This document shows positions 12,558 through 51,763 of a stretch of 64,000 nt of DNA, piece after piece; position 1 is the first letter of the stretch, and each line of letters opens with the position of its first letter. Origin of the DNA: an uncultured Gammaproteobacteria bacterium (GTDB lineage Bacteria; Patescibacteriota; Patescibacteriia; Magasanikbacterales; UBA922). Position numbers and translations under genes: made by a program. The stretch spans positions 128,092 through 192,091 of the forward strand of contig CAYMVY010000002.1 in NCBI GenBank assembly GCA_964394405.1. The letters are read 5' to 3'. The notes below the pieces were generated by a model. That model made no database searches. It was not told where the DNA came from and saw only the letters and a list, made by a program, of their open reading frames with translations.

Positions 12558-12659
12558 ATAGCCCTCCTCACGCTGATTCTCTAACAGAAGAACAACAGCC
12601 ACAGCACCATGACTGAGGAGTAATGTGTGCTTTTTCTGGAGCAACTAATGGATCCGTAT

Positions 12660-13169
12660 ACCTTCACCCAGCGCACCGGTAATGCCTTCCTCGCTCTGCC
12701 CCGTGTGACTGTCTACGACTGCCACATCCCCGTCTTCTCCCGCACCTTCACCATCCTGCATCAGGATGACCTCCGCCAGCTGATCTTCATGATGGGCGTC
12801 GCGCGTGTCATCCAGACGACGGAGAAGGCGCACGAGCTCTACAGCGCGCTCGGTCTGGACATGCTCCCGAACATGGGGGCGATCGCTGAGCGTATGTCCG
12901 GCATGAGGAAGCTGAAGCCCGCGAACGGTCTCGAGTACATCATGACCGATGACTCGCCCCGTAGCATGCGTCTCCAGGGCGCCCGCCTGCCCGAGGTGCA
13001 TAGCTACCGCGATGCGTTCCTCCAGGTCCTCGGCCTCCACAAGTACGACCAGGTCTCGCCTGCGGAAGGCGTGACCCTGCTCGATCAGGTGCTCAAGGCT
13101 GATCTGCCGATGGATCAGGACATCGCCATGAAGATCGCGATCATCGCCGGCACCTTCGACTTGTTCTGA
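12660..13169 (+). CDS. Hypothetical protein of high-GC island A (169 aa from ATG 12660, or 180 aa from 12627)
   Basis: Strong GC3 bias on the plus strand. The antisense 175-aa ORF is Arg/Leu/Glu-rich, typical of a non-coding frame. GGAG sits 7 nt before ATG 12660. No recognisable domain. Confidence 0.5.
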   Translation, partial: TFTQRTGNAFLALPRVTVYDCHIPVFSRTFTILHQDDLRQLIFMMGVARVIQTTEKAHELYSALGLDMLPNMGAIAERMSGMRKLKPANGLEYIMTDDSPRSMRLQGARLPEVHSYRDAFLQVLGLHKYDQVSPAEGVTLLDQVLKADLPMDQDIAMKIAIIAGTFDLF

Positions 13170-13375
13170 CACACAAGTTTCTCTAGCCTTCCCAGGAAGG
13201 TATTGCAGGTAGAGAAGAAACTACACGACGATTGGGACGCGTGAAAACGCGTTTGGAGATTGGACGAATCCTGCTTCGTCCTTCCTACTACTATCTTTAA
13301 TTATTAGAGGTAATTGAGGAATAAAAAGCCGCTTATGGGCGGTCTTTTTGTTTTTGTCAGTTTTACCCTCTAACC

Positions 13376-13404
13376 TTGACAAAAGGGCTTAATTGTGCTA
13401 TACT
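13376..13404 (+). promoter_or_regulatory. Strong consensus sigma70-like promoter TTGACA-17-TATACT inside island A
   Basis: ttgacaaaagggcttaattgtgctatact. A structured GC-rich leader and two small ORFs follow. Confidence 0.4.
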
Positions 13405-13513
13405 GAGCTGTTTCCGTATCTAACCGCAGGTTGTAGAGGTCGTACCTCATTGAAGTACCCCCTCTACAGCGCTACGGAATGGATCCGTCGCTGAGACCCC
13501 TTGGAGAGGACAA

Positions 13514-13642
13514 ATGAAGAAGTATCTCATTGCCGCTGGACTGACGATCGGACTCACCTTGATGGTGGTCCGCGTGGTCACCTGGGTCGTTAACGAGGCC
13601 CCGGTCGTTCCGGAGCGGCACCAGTTCGTGTACGACCCGTGA
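13514..13642 (+). CDS. Small hydrophobic peptide (42 aa) MKKYLIAAGLTIGLTLMVVRVVTWVVNEAPVVPERHQFVYDP
   Basis: GGAGAGG SD 6 nt upstream of the ATG. Single TM helix plus charged tail. Inside high-GC island A. Not in the ORF track (under 60 aa). Confidence 0.35.
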   Translation: MKKYLIAAGLTIGLTLMVVRVVTWVVNEAPVVPERHQFVYDP

Positions 13643-13658
13643 ACATCGGGACGTGCAA

Positions 13659-13730
13659 CATGCTCGGCAGCGCGTCGGTCATCGCTATCGTGGTGGTCAT
13701 CGTGGCCATCCTGAAAGCGTGCTACGCGTG
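13659..13730 (+). CDS. Very small hydrophobic peptide (23 aa) MLGSASVIAIVVVIVAILKACYA
   Basis: Begins 17 nt after the previous ORF. Entirely hydrophobic. A GC-rich hairpin (gggcggtgtcgcaagacgccgccc) follows. Confidence 0.25.
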
Positions 13731-13807
13731 AAACCTAACAACTGGGCGGTGTCGCAAGACGCCGCCCGAACCCAACTATCATTTTAAATCTTTGAAGTGA
13801 TTGAGGA

Positions 13808-13839
13808 CCCTGTACCAGAACGGTACAGGGTTTTGATTT
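13808..13839 (+). terminator. Rho-independent terminator hairpin ending island A (ccctgtacc agaac ggtacaggg + T-run)
   Basis: Perfect 9-bp stem followed by ttttgattt. Confidence 0.5.
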
Positions 13840-15620: not shown

Positions 15621-15646
15621 AATGCATATAAGTATATCATAAAAAC

Positions 15647-30338: not shown

Positions 30339-30408
30339 AGTATAAAGTATCCACATCGTAGCAGAAAAATGGCTGCATGTAAACAAATATGTGTCATAAA
30401 AACAGAAT

Positions 30409-30430
30409 GCCCCCGTACGAATACGGGGGC
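30409..30430 (-). terminator. GC-rich hairpin terminator of island B (gcccccgta cgaa tacgggggc)
   Basis: Perfect 9-bp G/C stem, lying downstream of the 30442-31011 ORF on the minus strand. Confidence 0.45.
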
Positions 30431-30441
30431 CCAAGCAAAGA

Positions 30442-31011
30442 TCAGTAGTCGCAAGACCCCTCCGTCCTCACGGCGATAAAACGGGTGTTGTCCTGCCATT
30501 CGTCCGTAGTCTTCATGAGCACGAGCTTGCGGGTGGCGAGCCTATCATTCATCACATCGAGGCAGGGTGTCATGGATTCCCCTTCTACCACGATGGTCAC
30601 GGTCCCGAGAGACACGATCGGTCCAGCCCAGACGTAGGATCGCGGGTATTGTTCCGCGAATGAGAGCAGATGTATGAGCTCACCTGGTTCGAGGCATCGT
30701 TCATGGATTTCGAGAAGGGCCTCCTCGGTGGTGACGCTTCGGCCGAAGTAGACGAACGTGAGGTCGACCGAGTAGATCTCATGACCTTCACTCGGGAAGT
30801 GCTCGCTCGTGAAGTACTCTTCCGATTCGACGTAGGCTCCGATCCGCTCGACCCTCTCCTCGACCTCGATGCTCTCGTCGATGTGAGTAGGACAGAACGC
30901 ACCATCCATGCAGTGGGTCATGTGAAACGGACGGAAGCTCTCGCTTTCGCACGAGATGTTCGAGAACGAAGATGTTAGAGCACATATCGCGATGAAAAGA
31001 ACTCGAGGCAT
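30442..31011 (-). CDS. Hypothetical secreted Cys-rich acidic protein of high-GC island B
   Basis: 189 aa. Signal-peptide-like MPRVLFIAICALTSSFS, six further Cys, GC3-rich codons. AGGAGAAGGAGA sits 6 nt before the ATG. Overlapping frames are Arg/Ser-rich artefacts. Confidence 0.5.
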   Translation of the reverse strand: MPRVLFIAICALTSSFSNISCESESFRPFHMTHCMDGAFCPTHIDESIEVEERVERIGAYVESEEYFTSEHFPSEGHEIYSVDLTFVYFGRSVTTEEALLEIHERCLEPGELIHLLSFAEQYPRSYVWAGPIVSLGTVTIVVEGESMTPCLDVMNDRLATRKLVLMKTTDEWQDNTRFIAVRTEGSCDY

Positions 31012-31181
31012 TGTCTTTCTCCTTCTCCTACAGTTGCGCCCTTAATCGACACACCGTATGCGGAACAAGGGCTAGACACTGATTCTACGCTAATCTATCT
31101 ATTCACTATTGTCAAATTTTTACAACTGGAACACATCTACTATTTTTGTTATACTACCTTATGTTCATAATTAAAACTCTT

Positions 31182-45059: not shown

Positions 45060-45470
45060 CTACTTCTTCAACAAATCTCTAATCTCCTCAAGCAAAACTT
45101 CCTGCTTTGGTGGAGTCGCTGGCTCTGGTTCTTCTTTTTTCTTTGCCATTTTATTAGCAATCTTCACCATCATAAATACCGCAAGGGCAATAATAAGGAA
45201 ATCAATTACGTTTTGAATAAACATGCCGTAATTAAAAGATACCGCTTGACTCACCACCTCACCTGCAGCATTAAGTTCTTCTGGTTTTAACACTACTTTT
45301 AAATTTTTAAAATCAACCCCACCAATCACATACCCAAGTGGAGGCATGATAATATCCGCAACGAGAGAGGAAACAATTTTCCCAAATGCACCACCGATAA
45401 TAATACCGACAGCCATATCGATCATATTCCCCCGCATGGCAAATTTTTTGAAATCCTGGATAAAGCTCAT
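45060..45470 (-). CDS. mscL: Large-conductance mechanosensitive channel MscL
   Basis: Motifs [27 protein letters not shown] and [12 protein letters not shown]. Confidence 0.9.
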
Positions 45471-45572
45471 ACACAATACATTATATTATTTGTAGACTGG
45501 TTAATTAAAACACAGATTATATAGAGATGCAATGAATGTATATCTTTACAAATACACTAATTTATGATATAC

Positions 45573-45601
45573 ATCTCCTTCCTCACGACGAGGAAGGAGA
45601 T
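45573..45601 (+). promoter_or_regulatory. Perfect hairpin sequestering the Shine-Dalgarno of the island C ORF (atctccttcct cacgacg aggaaggagat)
   Basis: 10-11 bp perfect stem whose 3' arm is the AGGAAGGAG ribosome-binding site, 6 nt before ATG 45606. Confidence 0.45.
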
Positions 45602-45605
45602 GATC

Positions 45606-45941
45606 ATGGCTGTACTGAAGTTTGAAAAGTACGACAACGAAAAGGCCGCTCTCGCCGCAGAAGAGGATGCTATCGACCTGCTCATACCCCTCCAGGTAGG
45701 GAGTGCCGAAGCGGCACGACGTGGTAGTGTTCTCATCTACATCCCGAAGGATAATACGGGTGAAGGTGAATACGAGCTCGAACACGCCGAAATCATGCAT
45801 CACGACCCCAAACGGCGTACTGTACTGGTCGAGGTGCAGGACGATGGCCAGGGTCCCAATGAGAACCCGCGAGCAGGGCAGGTGGTAGAACTCCCGGACG
45901 ACACCCTCTGCTACGTCGCACCACCAGCCACCTCCGAGTAG
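45606..45941 (+). CDS. Hypothetical acidic small protein of high-GC island C (about 112 aa)
   Basis: GC3-rich codons on the plus strand. The antisense 151-aa ORF looks like an artefact. No recognisable domain. Confidence 0.45.
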   Translation: MAVLKFEKYDNEKAALAAEEDAIDLLIPLQVGSAEAARRGSVLIYIPKDNTGEGEYELEHAEIMHHDPKRRTVLVEVQDDGQGPNENPRAGQVVELPDDTLCYVAPPATSE

Positions 45942-45964
45942 CACACCATACAACTCAGGAGGTT

Positions 45965-45999
45965 GTGTCAGGTCGGAGGCTCTGCTTCCGACCTGACAC
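45965..45999 (+). terminator. GC-rich terminator of island C (tgtcaggtcggag gctctgc ttccgacctgaca)
   Basis: 13-bp near-perfect stem followed by attt-rich sequence. Confidence 0.5.
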
Positions 46000-46079
46000 A
46001 TTACACACCCCCATTTTGATCGTAATACATTTTTTAAATTTATTCAGTTGAAGGAACTTTATTTACAAAAGTATAATTA

Positions 46080-46107
46080 AAAATTTCCCTATAAAGGGAA
46101 ATTTTTG
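46080..46107 (-). terminator. Terminator hairpin downstream of the cupredoxin gene (aaatttccc tataa agggaaattt)
   Basis: Perfect 10-bp stem with flanking A/T runs. Confidence 0.5.
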
Positions 46108-46137: not shown

Positions 46138-46626
46138 TTATTCTACAATCAACTTACCAAACATCCCGTTCTGTCTATGTTTCCCCACACTGCAGTAATA
46201 TTCGAATGTTCCGGTTTTGTCAGCAGTGAATTCCACTGTTTCACTTTGACCTGCTGCAATCTGTTTGGTCTTGACATTAAATTCATCGAGTACCCAGTCA
46301 TGAAAACCTTCTGCATTTATGAACGTTACTTTCACTTTATCACCCTTTTTTACTTTCATTTCTTTAAGATCAAAGGACAAGCCTTTTCCAGTTACGGTGA
46401 ACTCAACGAGTTTTGGAGTATCAACATTGACTTCCACATCAGCTCCAACATCCACCGTTACCCCAGCACTATCATCAGTATCATTGACAGCAGGAGTTTC
46501 TGTTGGCTGAGTCGTAGTCTGATCTGCCGGCTTACTTGGAGTGGTATTCGTTTCTACATTTGCGGTGGTCGAACATCCCGCACCGACCAGGAGAAGTGCT
46601 GCAGCAAAGATAAACATTTTTTGCAT
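46138..46626 (-). CDS. Cupredoxin (type-1 blue copper, plastocyanin/azurin-like) lipoprotein
   Basis: 162 aa. Signal and lipobox-like LVGAGCS, Thr/Pro-rich linker, then copper ligand pattern H..C....H....M (FHDW ... YCSVGKHRQNGM). Confidence 0.7.
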   Translation of the reverse strand: MQKMFIFAAALLLVGAGCSTTANVETNTTPSKPADQTTTQPTETPAVNDTDDSAGVTVDVGADVEVNVDTPKLVEFTVTGKGLSFDLKEMKVKKGDKVKVTFINAEGFHDWVLDEFNVKTKQIAAGQSETVEFTADKTGTFEYYCSVGKHRQNGMFGKLIVE

Positions 46627-47021: not shown

Positions 47022-48146
47022 TCACGGTGCCAATGGGAAAGTTATTTCGAGTGTTCCCGTACTCACCCACTGTCTCAGAGTTTCGTCTCCAATTGACACA
47101 CGAGCAAGGGCAGATAAAATCTGTTCACGCTCAGTAGTGTCTGCGACCAATGGCTGACTTTGTGTATTGATATGTACTGGAATTAACTTGATTTGTGCAT
47201 CAATTTTTTCGCTATCTTTTTCAAGTGTCAGAGATAGTAATAATCCTTGCATGGTTTCAAGCGAAAAATATTGATCGAACACAAAATTTCCTAGACTATA
47301 AAAAATTGGTTTACCTTTATACAGCTCAATTGGCTGGATCACATGGGGATGTGCGCCAATCACTATGTCTACACCAGCATCAATCATTGCGTATGCTTCT
47401 TGTTTTTGCGCCGTATTTACCCTATCTGTTATATATTCTGTCCCCCAATGCGGATAAGCAATAATGATATCAACTTCTGGACGAATATTTTTAATTTCAG
47501 TTATCACATTATCAAAACCAGTCCCAATAAGCTCATGAAAGCCGACAAATCCAATCTTGATTCCATTTTTTTCAACAATCGCTGAAAGCTTTTGTCCCTC
47601 ACGGTTATTTGGATCACCAAACCACCCTATCCCTGCTTCATCAAGAAATTTCTTGGTTTGCTCAAGCCCCTCAAATCCAAAATTGGTCGTGTGATTATTC
47701 GCAAGACTTACGATGTCAAAATTTTCTTTGAGTGTTGTTGTAACTTTTGGAGAGAAAGTGAAGCTAAAGCGCGCGCCACCCACACCATTTGCGATAGATT
47801 TATTGGTAGTAATCGGCCCCTCCAGATTTACTACTCGAAGATCTGCCTCTCGAAGGGTTGATGAAATCAGACGAAATGCATACCCAAAATCATTGTGTTT
47901 CTGGGCCAGAAGAAGCATGGTCCGATCGAGCATGATATCTCCTGCTGCCAACAAGGTAAGGCGTTTTTTTTCTATGACTTTGTCTCCCTCCTCTTTTACC
48001 TCTTCTTCAATTACTACTTTTTTCTCCGTAACACCTACTGTTTCTGATTCAATCGGACTCGAAGGCCATAGTAGCCACACAACTATAACAAGAGTGCAGG
48101 TAGAAGCACTTGCTATTGCAATGTATTTCCAGAAGTTGGGGTGCAT
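47022..48146 (-). CDS. capA: CapA/PgsA-family metallophosphatase (poly-gamma-glutamate capsule biosynthesis protein CapA-like)
   Basis: 374 aa. N-terminal TM, then LLAAGDIMLDR, VVNLEGP, GAHPHVIQP and SLGNFVFDQ motifs. Confidence 0.85.
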   Translation of the reverse strand: MHPNFWKYIAIASASTCTLVIVVWLLWPSSPIESETVGVTEKKVVIEEEVKEEGDKVIEKKRLTLLAAGDIMLDRTMLLLAQKHNDFGYAFRLISSTLREADLRVVNLEGPITTNKSIANGVGGARFSFTFSPKVTTTLKENFDIVSLANNHTTNFGFEGLEQTKKFLDEAGIGWFGDPNNREGQKLSAIVEKNGIKIGFVGFHELIGTGFDNVITEIKNIRPEVDIIIAYPHWGTEYITDRVNTAQKQEAYAMIDAGVDIVIGAHPHVIQPIELYKGKPIFYSLGNFVFDQYFSLETMQGLLLSLTLEKDSEKIDAQIKLIPVHINTQSQPLVADTTEREQILSALARVSIGDETLRQWVSTGTLEITFPLAP

Positions 48147-48269
48147 ACGAAATCTAGTATACCAACCCTCTGTAGATTTGACAAAAAAACTATTTTATGA
48201 TATATTTTCACGTTGCTCTTTTCGAAAACAGGCTGCCCTACCTTCTAACCCAAAAACTGGCGGAGAATC

Positions 48270-48809
48270 ATGATCATTAACAAAAGCCTGTCCGTCTCAG
48301 CAGTGACCAATCAGTGCGGAAAAATCAACGCAGTCTCCAGGGATGGAAAACTGCACATCACCTACACCGGCCCCACTCTCTCCCATGAGACGGTCGAAAA
48401 AGTGATCAGCGCTATGGTTACCGAGATCGACAACTCCATCCCGCAGATCCTGCAGCCTTCAGATAAAGGCAAAGTACTCGATACTCCCGAGATCCTGTGG
48501 CCAGTACTCGACATCGAGGTCAGAACGCTCCCACTCCTCCAATATGGAAACCAGTGGGAGAGTACTCGTGCGCTCAATGGCATGATGGATGCCAACATAC
48601 GATACCTCGGACAACTGGTGCAGAGGACTGAGAAGCAGATAATCACCGGCCTTCCTCGAGTAGACTGGCCACTCAAGCATTTCGGTCGCAAATGCTTGAA
48701 GGTGGTTAAAGACTGCATCTCACCCTTGGGCGTGCATTTCGGGATGGACATCCTCGGCTGGGTCCCGCCTGATGAACGCCTCATGATGCCTACCGAGCAG
48801 GACACCTAA
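48270..48809 (+). CDS. High-GC island D protein with C-terminal RNA polymerase alpha-subunit CTD-like (HhH) domain
   Basis: 179 aa. Residues about 75-170 align by eye with E. coli RpoA 250-325: ILWPV.DIEV.., IRYLGQLVQRTE vs IHYIGDLVQRTE, FGRKCLKVVKD...GVHFGM vs LGKKSLTEIKD...GLSLGM, WVPP vs WPP. The N-terminal 75 aa are unrelated to the alpha NTD. Confidence 0.55.
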   Translation: MIINKSLSVSAVTNQCGKINAVSRDGKLHITYTGPTLSHETVEKVISAMVTEIDNSIPQILQPSDKGKVLDTPEILWPVLDIEVRTLPLLQYGNQWESTRALNGMMDANIRYLGQLVQRTEKQIITGLPRVDWPLKHFGRKCLKVVKDCISPLGVHFGMDILGWVPPDERLMMPTEQDT

Positions 48810-48843
48810 AGCGCCCCCCCTCTGTGGGCGCGCACCCCCCTTA

Positions 48844-48895
48844 CCCCACGCGTAGTGTAGCAATACGGCTACACACTACACGCGTGGGGTTTTAC
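48844..48895 (+). terminator. Long GC-rich palindromic terminator of island D (ccccacgcgtagtgtag...ctacactacacgcgtgggg + T-run)
   Basis: Extended imperfect palindrome followed by ttttacatttt. Confidence 0.45.
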
Positions 48896-51070: not shown

Positions 51071-51257
51071 AGTACAAAATTAAAATCTGTATATAGTATA
51101 CGATAAACGATACAAAAAGTAACATACGGTAATTTTATACACATCACCATATTTTCTCATACACTATAACGTGGTACGCTATTACCCTTCCAGGTTTTAC
51201 GGCATACTTGGGAGAGGTGCTACCGTCCACAATGCCGTCCAAGGAGAGAGTGGCCAC

Positions 51258-51626
51258 ATGGCCCACGTGTTTACGATGCTGATCGAGGGTGATAAAAACC
51301 CGAGCGAAGGTGATCTGTACCTGCTTTTCATGAAGTCTCGTGACTTCTTCGGTGAATGCGAAGCGACCTTCTACGGAAAGGATTCAAAGACTGGTCAACC
51401 GATTCAACGCTCCTGCCTCATCTCGAGTGTCGGATGGGTTCCGAAATCTATGAATAGCCTGAAAATCGAAGGCTCCTACCGCATCACTGATGAGTGCCCC
51501 TCGGTTCATATTCCGGAGTACAACCCCCTGAAGAAAACCGGCACGATGACTTACACTCTCCCCAAGCCCAACGCGGGAGAGCTGATGGAAGAGGTCCACT
51601 TTGGCCAGGAGCTGGCTGTCGCCTAA
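51258..51626 (+). CDS. Hypothetical small protein of high-GC island E (about 122 aa from MAHVFTML)
   Basis: AAGGAGAGAG SD precedes this ATG. The ORF-track GTG start at 51171 lacks an SD. GC3-rich. No domain recognised. Confidence 0.45.
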   Translation: MAHVFTMLIEGDKNPSEGDLYLLFMKSRDFFGECEATFYGKDSKTGQPIQRSCLISSVGWVPKSMNSLKIEGSYRITDECPSVHIPEYNPLKKTGTMTYTLPKPNAGELMEEVHFGQELAVA

Positions 51627-51648
51627 TCCTCGATAATTGAGCGTCGTT

Positions 51649-51698
51649 ATCCGCACCCGTATTGTTCAGTCTACCGGATTGTCCAGTCGGGTGCGGAT
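51649..51698 (+). terminator. GC-rich terminator of island E (atccgcacccg ... cgggtgcggat)
   Basis: Perfect 11-bp stem with about 28-nt loop, then gctttctt. Confidence 0.4.
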
Positions 51699-51763
51699 GC
51701 TTTCTTATTGCAAAAAATCAGCACATAGTATATACTGTTTTCTTTACACTTGTTCAGAATCAT

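Follow-up and report, generated by a model that had tools for sequence, protein, structure and literature searches.

How can a gene be translated when its ribosome-binding site is folded into a perfect hairpin, and what is such a gene doing in a bacterium whose own genes hardly use Shine-Dalgarno (SD) motifs? This question is raised by a short GC-rich stretch, referred to here as island C, within 64,000 nt of DNA (the window) from an AT-rich CPR bacterium related to Ca. Magasanikbacteria. An earlier note on this locus, made from the sequence, described a foreign open reading frame whose ribosome-binding site is locked in a stem of 10-11 bp with a 7-nt loop, and it regarded the arrangement as translational repression that can be relieved by temperature, an sRNA or a protein. 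Here we report where the island comes from, how its start region folds, which transcripts it is predicted to give, and which of the possible explanations agree with these data.

Acquisition of island C

Island C covers 429 bp (45572-46000, + strand), with a strong hairpin at either end, and was delimited by its composition and by the empty sites in relatives. Its GC content is 0.566, compared with 0.409 for the window, and the edges are sharp and lie at the two hairpins. The foreign GC that had been ascribed to the open reading frame thus holds (56.6% for the island and 40.9% for the window). The island is flanked by two host genes on the minus strand, namely mscL (45060-45476; Pfam MscL, E = 4e-47), which is divergent from the island gene, and a cupredoxin gene (46138-46626; Pfam Copper-bind and Cupredoxin_1). 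The distance from the mscL start at 45476 to the cupredoxin stop at 46138 is 661 bp in the window.

Relatives were found by scanning GTDB species genomes with the neighbouring TPP enzyme, and two of them, L002 and L003, were syntenic. L003 belongs to Ca. Magasanikbacteria UBA922, and its proteins show 82% (TPP enzyme), 82% (MscL), 79% (aldehyde dehydrogenase) and 75% (the next gene) identity to those of the window; in this genome, DUF5652 and mscL are about 57 bp apart. The distance from cupredoxin to mscL is 99 bp in L002, a 2.8-kb contig (CAYWFD010000094.1). Spacers of 57-99 bp mean that the site is empty in both relatives. Judged by its composition and these empty sites, island C is an insertion that was acquired horizontally. 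In a scan of metagenomes for MscL, which could have given further occupied or empty sites, the MscL proteins obtained were all distant (64% identity at most) and came from unrelated taxa.

The L002 contig keeps the gene order of the window (cupredoxin, mscL, TPP enzyme, aldehyde dehydrogenase) with 63-81% amino-acid identity, and it is filed under an 'uncultured Gammaproteobacteria' bin. It is probably misbinned, because its gene order and identity match the CPR genome.

No target-site duplication beyond the chance level flanks island C, an 8-mer being shared by 35% of random position pairs. The neighbouring genes that were scanned are housekeeping genes (mscL, cupredoxin, TPP enzyme, aldehyde dehydrogenase, PGA_cap, sigma factor, GreA and others), and no transposase, integrase or recombinase gene was found among them.

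The orphan gene and the 3′ end of the island

The open reading frame of the island (45606-45941, + strand) is identical to the NCBI gene call P0001 and encodes an acidic protein of 111 aa with a pI of 4.46. This agrees with the acidic product of about 112 aa described before, and the NCBI start is the ATG at 45606. The protein is hydrophilic (GRAVY -0.5) and contains 23 D+E and 10 K+R residues. Both strands of the island are open, over 125 and 151 codons, and an open frame of such length was found in about 9% of island shuffles; the length of the frame is therefore weak evidence. The composition of the + frame is more informative. Its period-3 chi2 is 46.5, whereas 2000 shuffles averaged 6 and never exceeded 24, and the canonical coding pattern was observed, with G at 0.46 and T at 0.07 in position 1 and A at 0.39 in position 2. 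This strong three-base periodicity indicates that the + frame is coding.

It might be argued that there is no protein gene at this place, and that the island either encodes a structured non-coding RNA or has its gene in the minus strand (the 151-aa frame at 45546-46001). The fold of the whole island (z = -5.9) would fit with such an idea, as would the openness of both strands and the frequency of equal-length frames in the shuffles. However, the periodicity lies far beyond the shuffle maximum, and the + frame is canonical with a hydrophilic product, whereas Cys, Trp and Phe abound in the minus-strand product and a homology search with it found no homologue. Antisense frames tend toward products rich in these three residues. 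A non-coding RNA was rejected on the period-3 signal and on the absence of Rfam matches, and we consider it extremely improbable that the island holds no protein gene on the + strand.

The protein is an orphan. The homology search that had been proposed as a check found only the protein itself, both among 5.8 billion clusters and among 1.84 billion representatives (the latter searched in full with HMMER). Pfam, PHROGs, PADLOC, NCBIfam and PDB gave no matches, and neither did tblastn of phage, plasmid, viral-contig and metagenome-contig sequences. A single further record exists, a Logan contig of SRR12404947, which is 100% identical and is not independent. AlphaFold run without an alignment gave a mean pLDDT of 40, an unusable model.

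Downstream of the gene, a second hairpin closes the island (45964-45980 / 45984-46000, + strand). It has a 17-bp stem with one G-U pair, a 3-nt loop and a folding energy of -31.4 kcal/mol, and it is unique in the window. The sequence that follows it is AUUACACACCCCCAUUUUG, and since an adjacent U tract is absent, the hairpin is not a canonical intrinsic terminator; the terminator scan did not list the site 45964-46000. The 13-bp GC-rich terminator that had been assigned here is therefore right as to a strong hairpin, but the stem is 17 bp long and has no U tract. A canonical bidirectional terminator, made of an A run, a 12-bp stem and a T run, was listed by the scan at 46079-46106 and begins 78 nt beyond the 3′ hairpin. 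This predicted terminator serves the cupredoxin gene and possibly the island transcript too.

Folding of the ribosome-binding region

At its other end, island C opens with a perfect 13-bp inverted repeat around the 5-nt loop ACGAC (45572-45584 / 45590-45602, + strand), as read from the sequence. The two arms, CATCTCCTTCCTC at 45572-45584 and GAGGAAGGAGATG at 45590-45602, are complementary at 13 of 13 positions. The 5′ arm contains the anti-SD-like CAUCUCCUUCCUC and the 3′ arm GAGGAAGGAGAUG. The SD-like tract GAGGAAGGAG (45590-45599, + strand) is read inside the 3′ arm, and an alternative in-frame ATG (45600-45602, + strand), which would give a product of 113 aa if used, is also inside the stem. 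The ATG at 45606 comes 3 nt after the stem; its distance from the GGAG core is 6 nt, as had been noted. The description of a ribosome-binding site held in a perfect hairpin was likewise borne out, with the palindrome at the place reported; the perfect pairing stands, and the real dimensions are 13 bp and 5 nt, not 10-11 bp and 7 nt.

The isolated hairpin folds with -22.4 kcal/mol according to RNA folding. A 101-nt context of the hairpin reached -31.7 kcal/mol, whereas dinucleotide-preserving shuffles had a mean of -14.7 with an sd of 2.7 (z = -6.4); none of the 200 shuffles folded as well. The span from -30 to +30 around the island C start codon gave -19.6 kcal/mol, while the same span of 58 host genes gave a mean of -6.0 (sd 4.3), so that the island start lies at z = -3.2. 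About 12 perfect hairpins of at least 10 bp are present across the 64 kb, among which the one at 45572 is the richest in G-C pairs. Few of these hairpins lack A and T runs at their sides, and this one, being among them, does not have the shape of a terminator; those at 15644, 37298, 46079, 48905 and 63930 carry A/T runs on their flanks in the style of bidirectional terminators. When the complete stem is transcribed, the folding model leaves the SD unpaired at 37 °C with a probability of 0%. Other copies of the arms were not found within the window, and the stem is known from one sequence, with no homologue that carries it. The hairpin and the foreign orphan gene behind it are real.

A perfect stem may arise without any function. 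The 5′ arm could be an inverted duplication of the SD region, produced by template switching or snap-back repair at the junction, in which case the stem would be recent and unselected and the gene possibly silent. The stem sits exactly on the AT/GC boundary, its perfection suggests youth, and it precedes an orphan in one genome only, the relatives being without it. These features are balanced by others: the reading frame is intact with a strong coding signal, neither a target-site duplication nor any other junction signature was found above chance, and another GC-rich island of the window, island A, appears to have an analogous pairing of its 5′ end with its SD, together with the 8-mer TCCTCACG at the matching offset from the -10 hexamer. 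We therefore consider a neutral by-product to be rather unlikely.

Predicted promoter and start of the transcript

The best promoter-like site found upstream of the gene by a consensus scan is TTTACA-17-TGaTATACA (45545-45573, + strand). It consists of a candidate -35 element TTTACA (45545-45550), a 17-nt spacer with TG, and a candidate -10 hexamer TATACA (45568-45573), the last two bases of which are the first two bases of the hairpin. The host promoter consensus obtained in the promoter scan, TTGACA-17-TATACT, precedes the tRNA-Asn, cupredoxin and capA-like genes, and a promoter of this type is also found before islands A, A2 and D. The island C promoter is absent from the list of the promoter tool because position 6 of its -10 hexamer is A and not T. 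It is identical at 23 of 29 positions to the promoter of island D (48178-48206), and the two have in common a 16-nt spacer block, ACTAWTTTATGATATA, which occurs elsewhere in the window never with fewer than two mismatches. This suggests that islands C and D carry a common promoter module.

The promoter of the capA-like gene (PGA_cap; 48146-48184, - strand) lies back to back with that of island D, and their -35 elements overlap. No more than 9 nt separate the end of its -10 hexamer TATACT from the ATG, and the capA-like mRNA would therefore have no leader or almost none.

Transcription from the candidate promoter of island C would be expected to start near 45579-45582, which is 6-9 nt past the -10 hexamer and inside the 5′ arm. 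As this promoter ends within the 5′ arm, its predicted transcripts retain a stem of only about 4-7 bp. The positions 45574-45584 are pyrimidines throughout, and for want of a purine at which transcription could begin, the exact position is uncertain; the true start could be upstream, with a complete lock, or at A45585, with no stem left. Two weaker candidate promoters are located upstream, TTGAAA-18-CACAAT at 45448 (promoter tool) and TAGACT-16-GATTAT at 45493 (read from the sequence), and both would yield a fully locked transcript. The folding model is sensitive to the choice of 5′ end. With a 5′ end at or before 45572 the stem is complete (13 bp) and the mean unpaired probability of the SD is 0.00; at 45575 it is 0.002 with a stem of 10 bp; at 45578 it rises to 0.29 with 7 bp and at 45580 to 0.51 with 5 bp; and at 45582, where about no stem is left, it is 0.72.

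The explanation that we prefer is that island C may be a self-contained cassette of one gene, acquired horizontally and organised like a moron (promoter, foreign open reading frame, 3′ hairpin), placed between mscL and the cupredoxin gene of its AT-rich host. A ribosome-binding region derived from the donor, consisting of GAGGAAGGAG and the first AUG, would be clamped by an anti-SD-like pyrimidine tract at the promoter, and the stem would act as a constitutive brake on translation with no sensor. Transcripts begun upstream of 45572 would be translationally locked, and those from its own predicted promoter, starting at about 45579-45582, would keep a stem of about 4-7 bp and be partly translatable. 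Expression would therefore be low and tied to its own promoter. We give an even chance to this reading, a moron-like cassette with a constitutive brake that depends on the start site; in it we infer the promoter, the start site, the consequence for translation and whatever benefit the cell may have. Several points speak against the brake. The promoter is a consensus match only, and its -10 hexamer ends in A and not in the conserved T. A start inside the stem leaves the perfect symmetry of the untranscribed positions 45572-45579 without an explanation at the RNA level. Moreover, the host possibly lacks an anti-SD, so that the 'SD' may be irrelevant.

The second of these points would be answered if the symmetry belonged to the DNA. 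The 31-bp palindrome may be the operator of a dimeric repressor or a cruciform-prone block of the promoter, with the RNA stem incidental, and this would account for the symmetry of 45572-45579, which is possibly untranscribed. The palindrome starts in the -10 hexamer and spans the predicted start site, and island D has a perfect 10-bp palindrome, TTTTCGAAAA, just 3′ of its related promoter. On the other hand, half-sites of 13 bp are long for an operator, the half-site has no second copy in the window, and no regulator gene is present in or beside the island. The 3′ arm also coincides exactly with a functional-looking SD and AUG, which points to a logic at the RNA level. We consider an element acting on DNA unlikely.

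The position of the predicted start also bears on the possibility that the hairpin mainly stabilises the mRNA, in which case the 5′ and 3′ hairpins would shield it from 5′-end-dependent and 3′ exonucleolytic decay and the occlusion of the SD would be secondary. Very stable hairpins are found at both ends of the island (-22.4 and -31.4 kcal/mol), and a stable hairpin close to the predicted 5′ end is a feature of islands A2 and B as well. Nevertheless, a stabilising hairpin has no need to include the SD and the AUG, and it requires a start at or before 45572, whereas the best promoter predicts otherwise. It seems improbable to us that protection of the mRNA is the main role of the stem.

Possible control by temperature, ligands and trans-acting RNA

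The constitutive brake that we prefer differs from the regulated translational switch of the earlier note, in which heat, an sRNA or a protein would open the stem. Known cis-repressors have this architecture of an SD and an AUG within a stem, and the 5′ arm, which mimics an anti-SD, could in principle be displaced by a purine-rich trans RNA. In the melting model of the complete stem, the unpaired probability of the SD was 0.000 at 37 °C, 0.002 at 65 °C and 0.022 at 85 °C. Relief by temperature is thus excluded in silico, with the SD at least 98% paired (unpaired about 0.02) at 85 °C. An RNA thermometer of the ROSE or fourU type was rejected, since the stem is perfect at 13 of 13 positions with no mismatch and stays paired at 85 °C in the model.

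An alternative fold that exposes the SD, which would have spoken against the occlusion, was not found in 461 nt of context; the MFE and centroid structures keep the stem in both the 101-nt and the 461-nt contexts. The distance from the promoter to the stem is less than 30 nt (at most about 30), too short for an aptamer. The search of Rfam gave no matches at the gathering score, and only chance miRNA and sRNA matches at E up to 10. A translational riboswitch was rejected for these reasons, namely no space for an aptamer, no alternative fold and no Rfam match.

Complements to the arms that could act in trans were not found above chance within the window. There are five near-matches including both arms, that is, three beyond them, with 1.6 expected, and 5 of 100 shuffles reached five. 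Relief by an sRNA hence found no partner in the window. The earlier proposal of translational repression is supported in part: the burial of the SD and start codon in a perfect stem stands, relief by temperature is excluded in the model, and the window shows no sRNA partner above chance. Together with the absence of SD use in the host, these results make a regulated switch improbable.

Shine-Dalgarno motifs in the host and in the six islands

The motifs AGGA, GGAG, GAGG or AAGG were searched in the 19-nt span that lies between 22 and 4 nt before the start codon. They were present in 2 of the 58 host genes, and about 11 would be expected by chance in a rough estimate from base composition. The relatives gave similar counts, with 1 of 12 genes in L003 and 0 of 9 in L004. 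Going by these counts, the host is essentially without SD use. In about half of Parcubacteria the 16S rRNA is reported to have lost the anti-SD motif (PMC9297842), and the scarcity of SD motifs in the host, a Parcubacteria-type CPR bacterium, agrees with this loss. It is therefore doubtful that the 'SD' of island C works as an SD in this cell.

The islands present a different picture. Six GC-rich islands, designated A, A2, B, C, D and E, are found in the window, and a strong SD is present at every one of them (GAGGAG, GGAGAGG, AGGAGAAGGAGA, GAGGAAGGAG, GGCGGAGA and AGGAGAGAG). The five islands besides C, located at 12560-13290, 13376-13835, 30382-31075, 48178-48895 and 51160-51700, have 53-61% GC compared with 41%, and they sit between housekeeping genes. 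Each island contains one open reading frame, or in A2 two coupled small hydrophobic ones, and a downstream hairpin that is mostly terminator-like. The island proteins showed no similarity when compared with each other. The SD motifs and the higher GC suggest that the islands came from one or more SD-using donors of higher GC.

The open reading frame of island A (12627/12648-13169) encodes an orphan as well. At the predicted 5′ end of its transcript, CUCCUCACG, the sequence CUCCUCA pairs with UGAGGAG beside a start codon. This pairing, together with the common offset of TCCTCACG, is a hint, suggestive only, of design rather than accident.

The 8-mer TCCTCACG occurs three times in the window (12565, 30465 and 45580), with 1.2 expected, and all occurrences are inside GC islands. 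It lies 7 nt past the -10 hexamer in island A and 6 nt past it in island C, at the predicted mRNA 5′ end.

A broader version of our reading would make the six SD-bearing orphan cassettes a class, in which a common 5′ anti-SD-like YCCUCACG would pair with the imported SD and silence or gate translation, in a host whose ribosomes would not depend on SD pairing. In islands A and C, YCCUCACG stands equally far from the -10 hexamer. That all six belong to such a class appears quite unlikely to us.

In the 179-aa product of the island D frame (48270-48809, + strand), the stretch of residues 98-170 matches the RNA polymerase alpha C-terminal domain, with E = 5e-6 in Pfam, E = 2e-10 in NCBIfam and 29% identity to rpoA of proteobacteria. 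The product is a standalone alpha-CTD-like protein on foreign DNA.

Relation to known systems

The layout of island C is similar to that of a phage moron, as defined by Hendrix and Juhala and reviewed in PMC3594210. It has a promoter-like site, a single open reading frame and a 3′ hairpin, its GC content is deviant, and it is inserted between genes that are adjacent in relatives. Unlike a phage moron, it lies among chromosomal housekeeping genes with no recognisable prophage, and its product has no PHROG match and no homologue in phage collections. A small open reading frame followed by a palindromic element is also found in integron cassettes with their attC sites. However, the 3′ element of island C is a simple, near-perfect stem of 37 nt without R and L boxes, the islands are dispersed with a predicted promoter apiece, and no integrase was found in the neighbouring genes scanned.

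In thermometers of the ROSE and fourU type, the stem that pairs the SD is imperfect and opens at physiological temperatures. Island C resembles these thermometers and the expression platforms of riboswitches in that its SD and start codon are paired with an upstream anti-SD-like tract, but its stem is far too stable and has no mismatches, bulges, aptamer or family match. As to its kind, it is an SD-occluding stem in a moron-like acquired gene, which is an ordinary device. What is unusual is the setting, in which a CPR genome that makes no use of SD motifs carries a set of SD-bearing, GC-rich orphan cassettes. Taken alone, island C is one further SD-occluding stem before an orphan gene and is not generalisable; among the six cassettes it is the most extreme, with its SD buried in a perfect stem. 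If the cassettes are expressed, they would be a natural test of how non-SD ribosomes deal with SD-bearing, structured foreign mRNAs, and also of how ultra-small symbionts domesticate or silence acquired genes.

The primary transcripts of type I toxin mRNAs such as hok, tisB, zorO and aapA1 are translationally inert, and their SD is occluded until the 5′ end is processed. The 5′-proximal anti-SD of island C, and the dependence of its translatability on the nature of the 5′ end, are like those of such mRNAs. Its product, however, is an acidic and hydrophilic protein of 111 aa and not a small hydrophobic toxin, and island C gave no PADLOC match for a type I toxin-antitoxin system and has no evident antisense RNA gene. 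Island A2 looks closer to this class than island C does.

Island A2 (13376-13835, + strand) has no long open reading frame. It has the promoter TTGACA-17-TGcTATACT, a structured leader and a terminator at 13807-13831, and it folds with z = -5.9 and gave no Rfam match. Two small hydrophobic frames, at 13514-13642 (42 aa) and 13639-13731 (30 aa), are joined by a GTGA stop/start overlap. A2 may encode small membrane proteins or a type-I-toxin-like pair.
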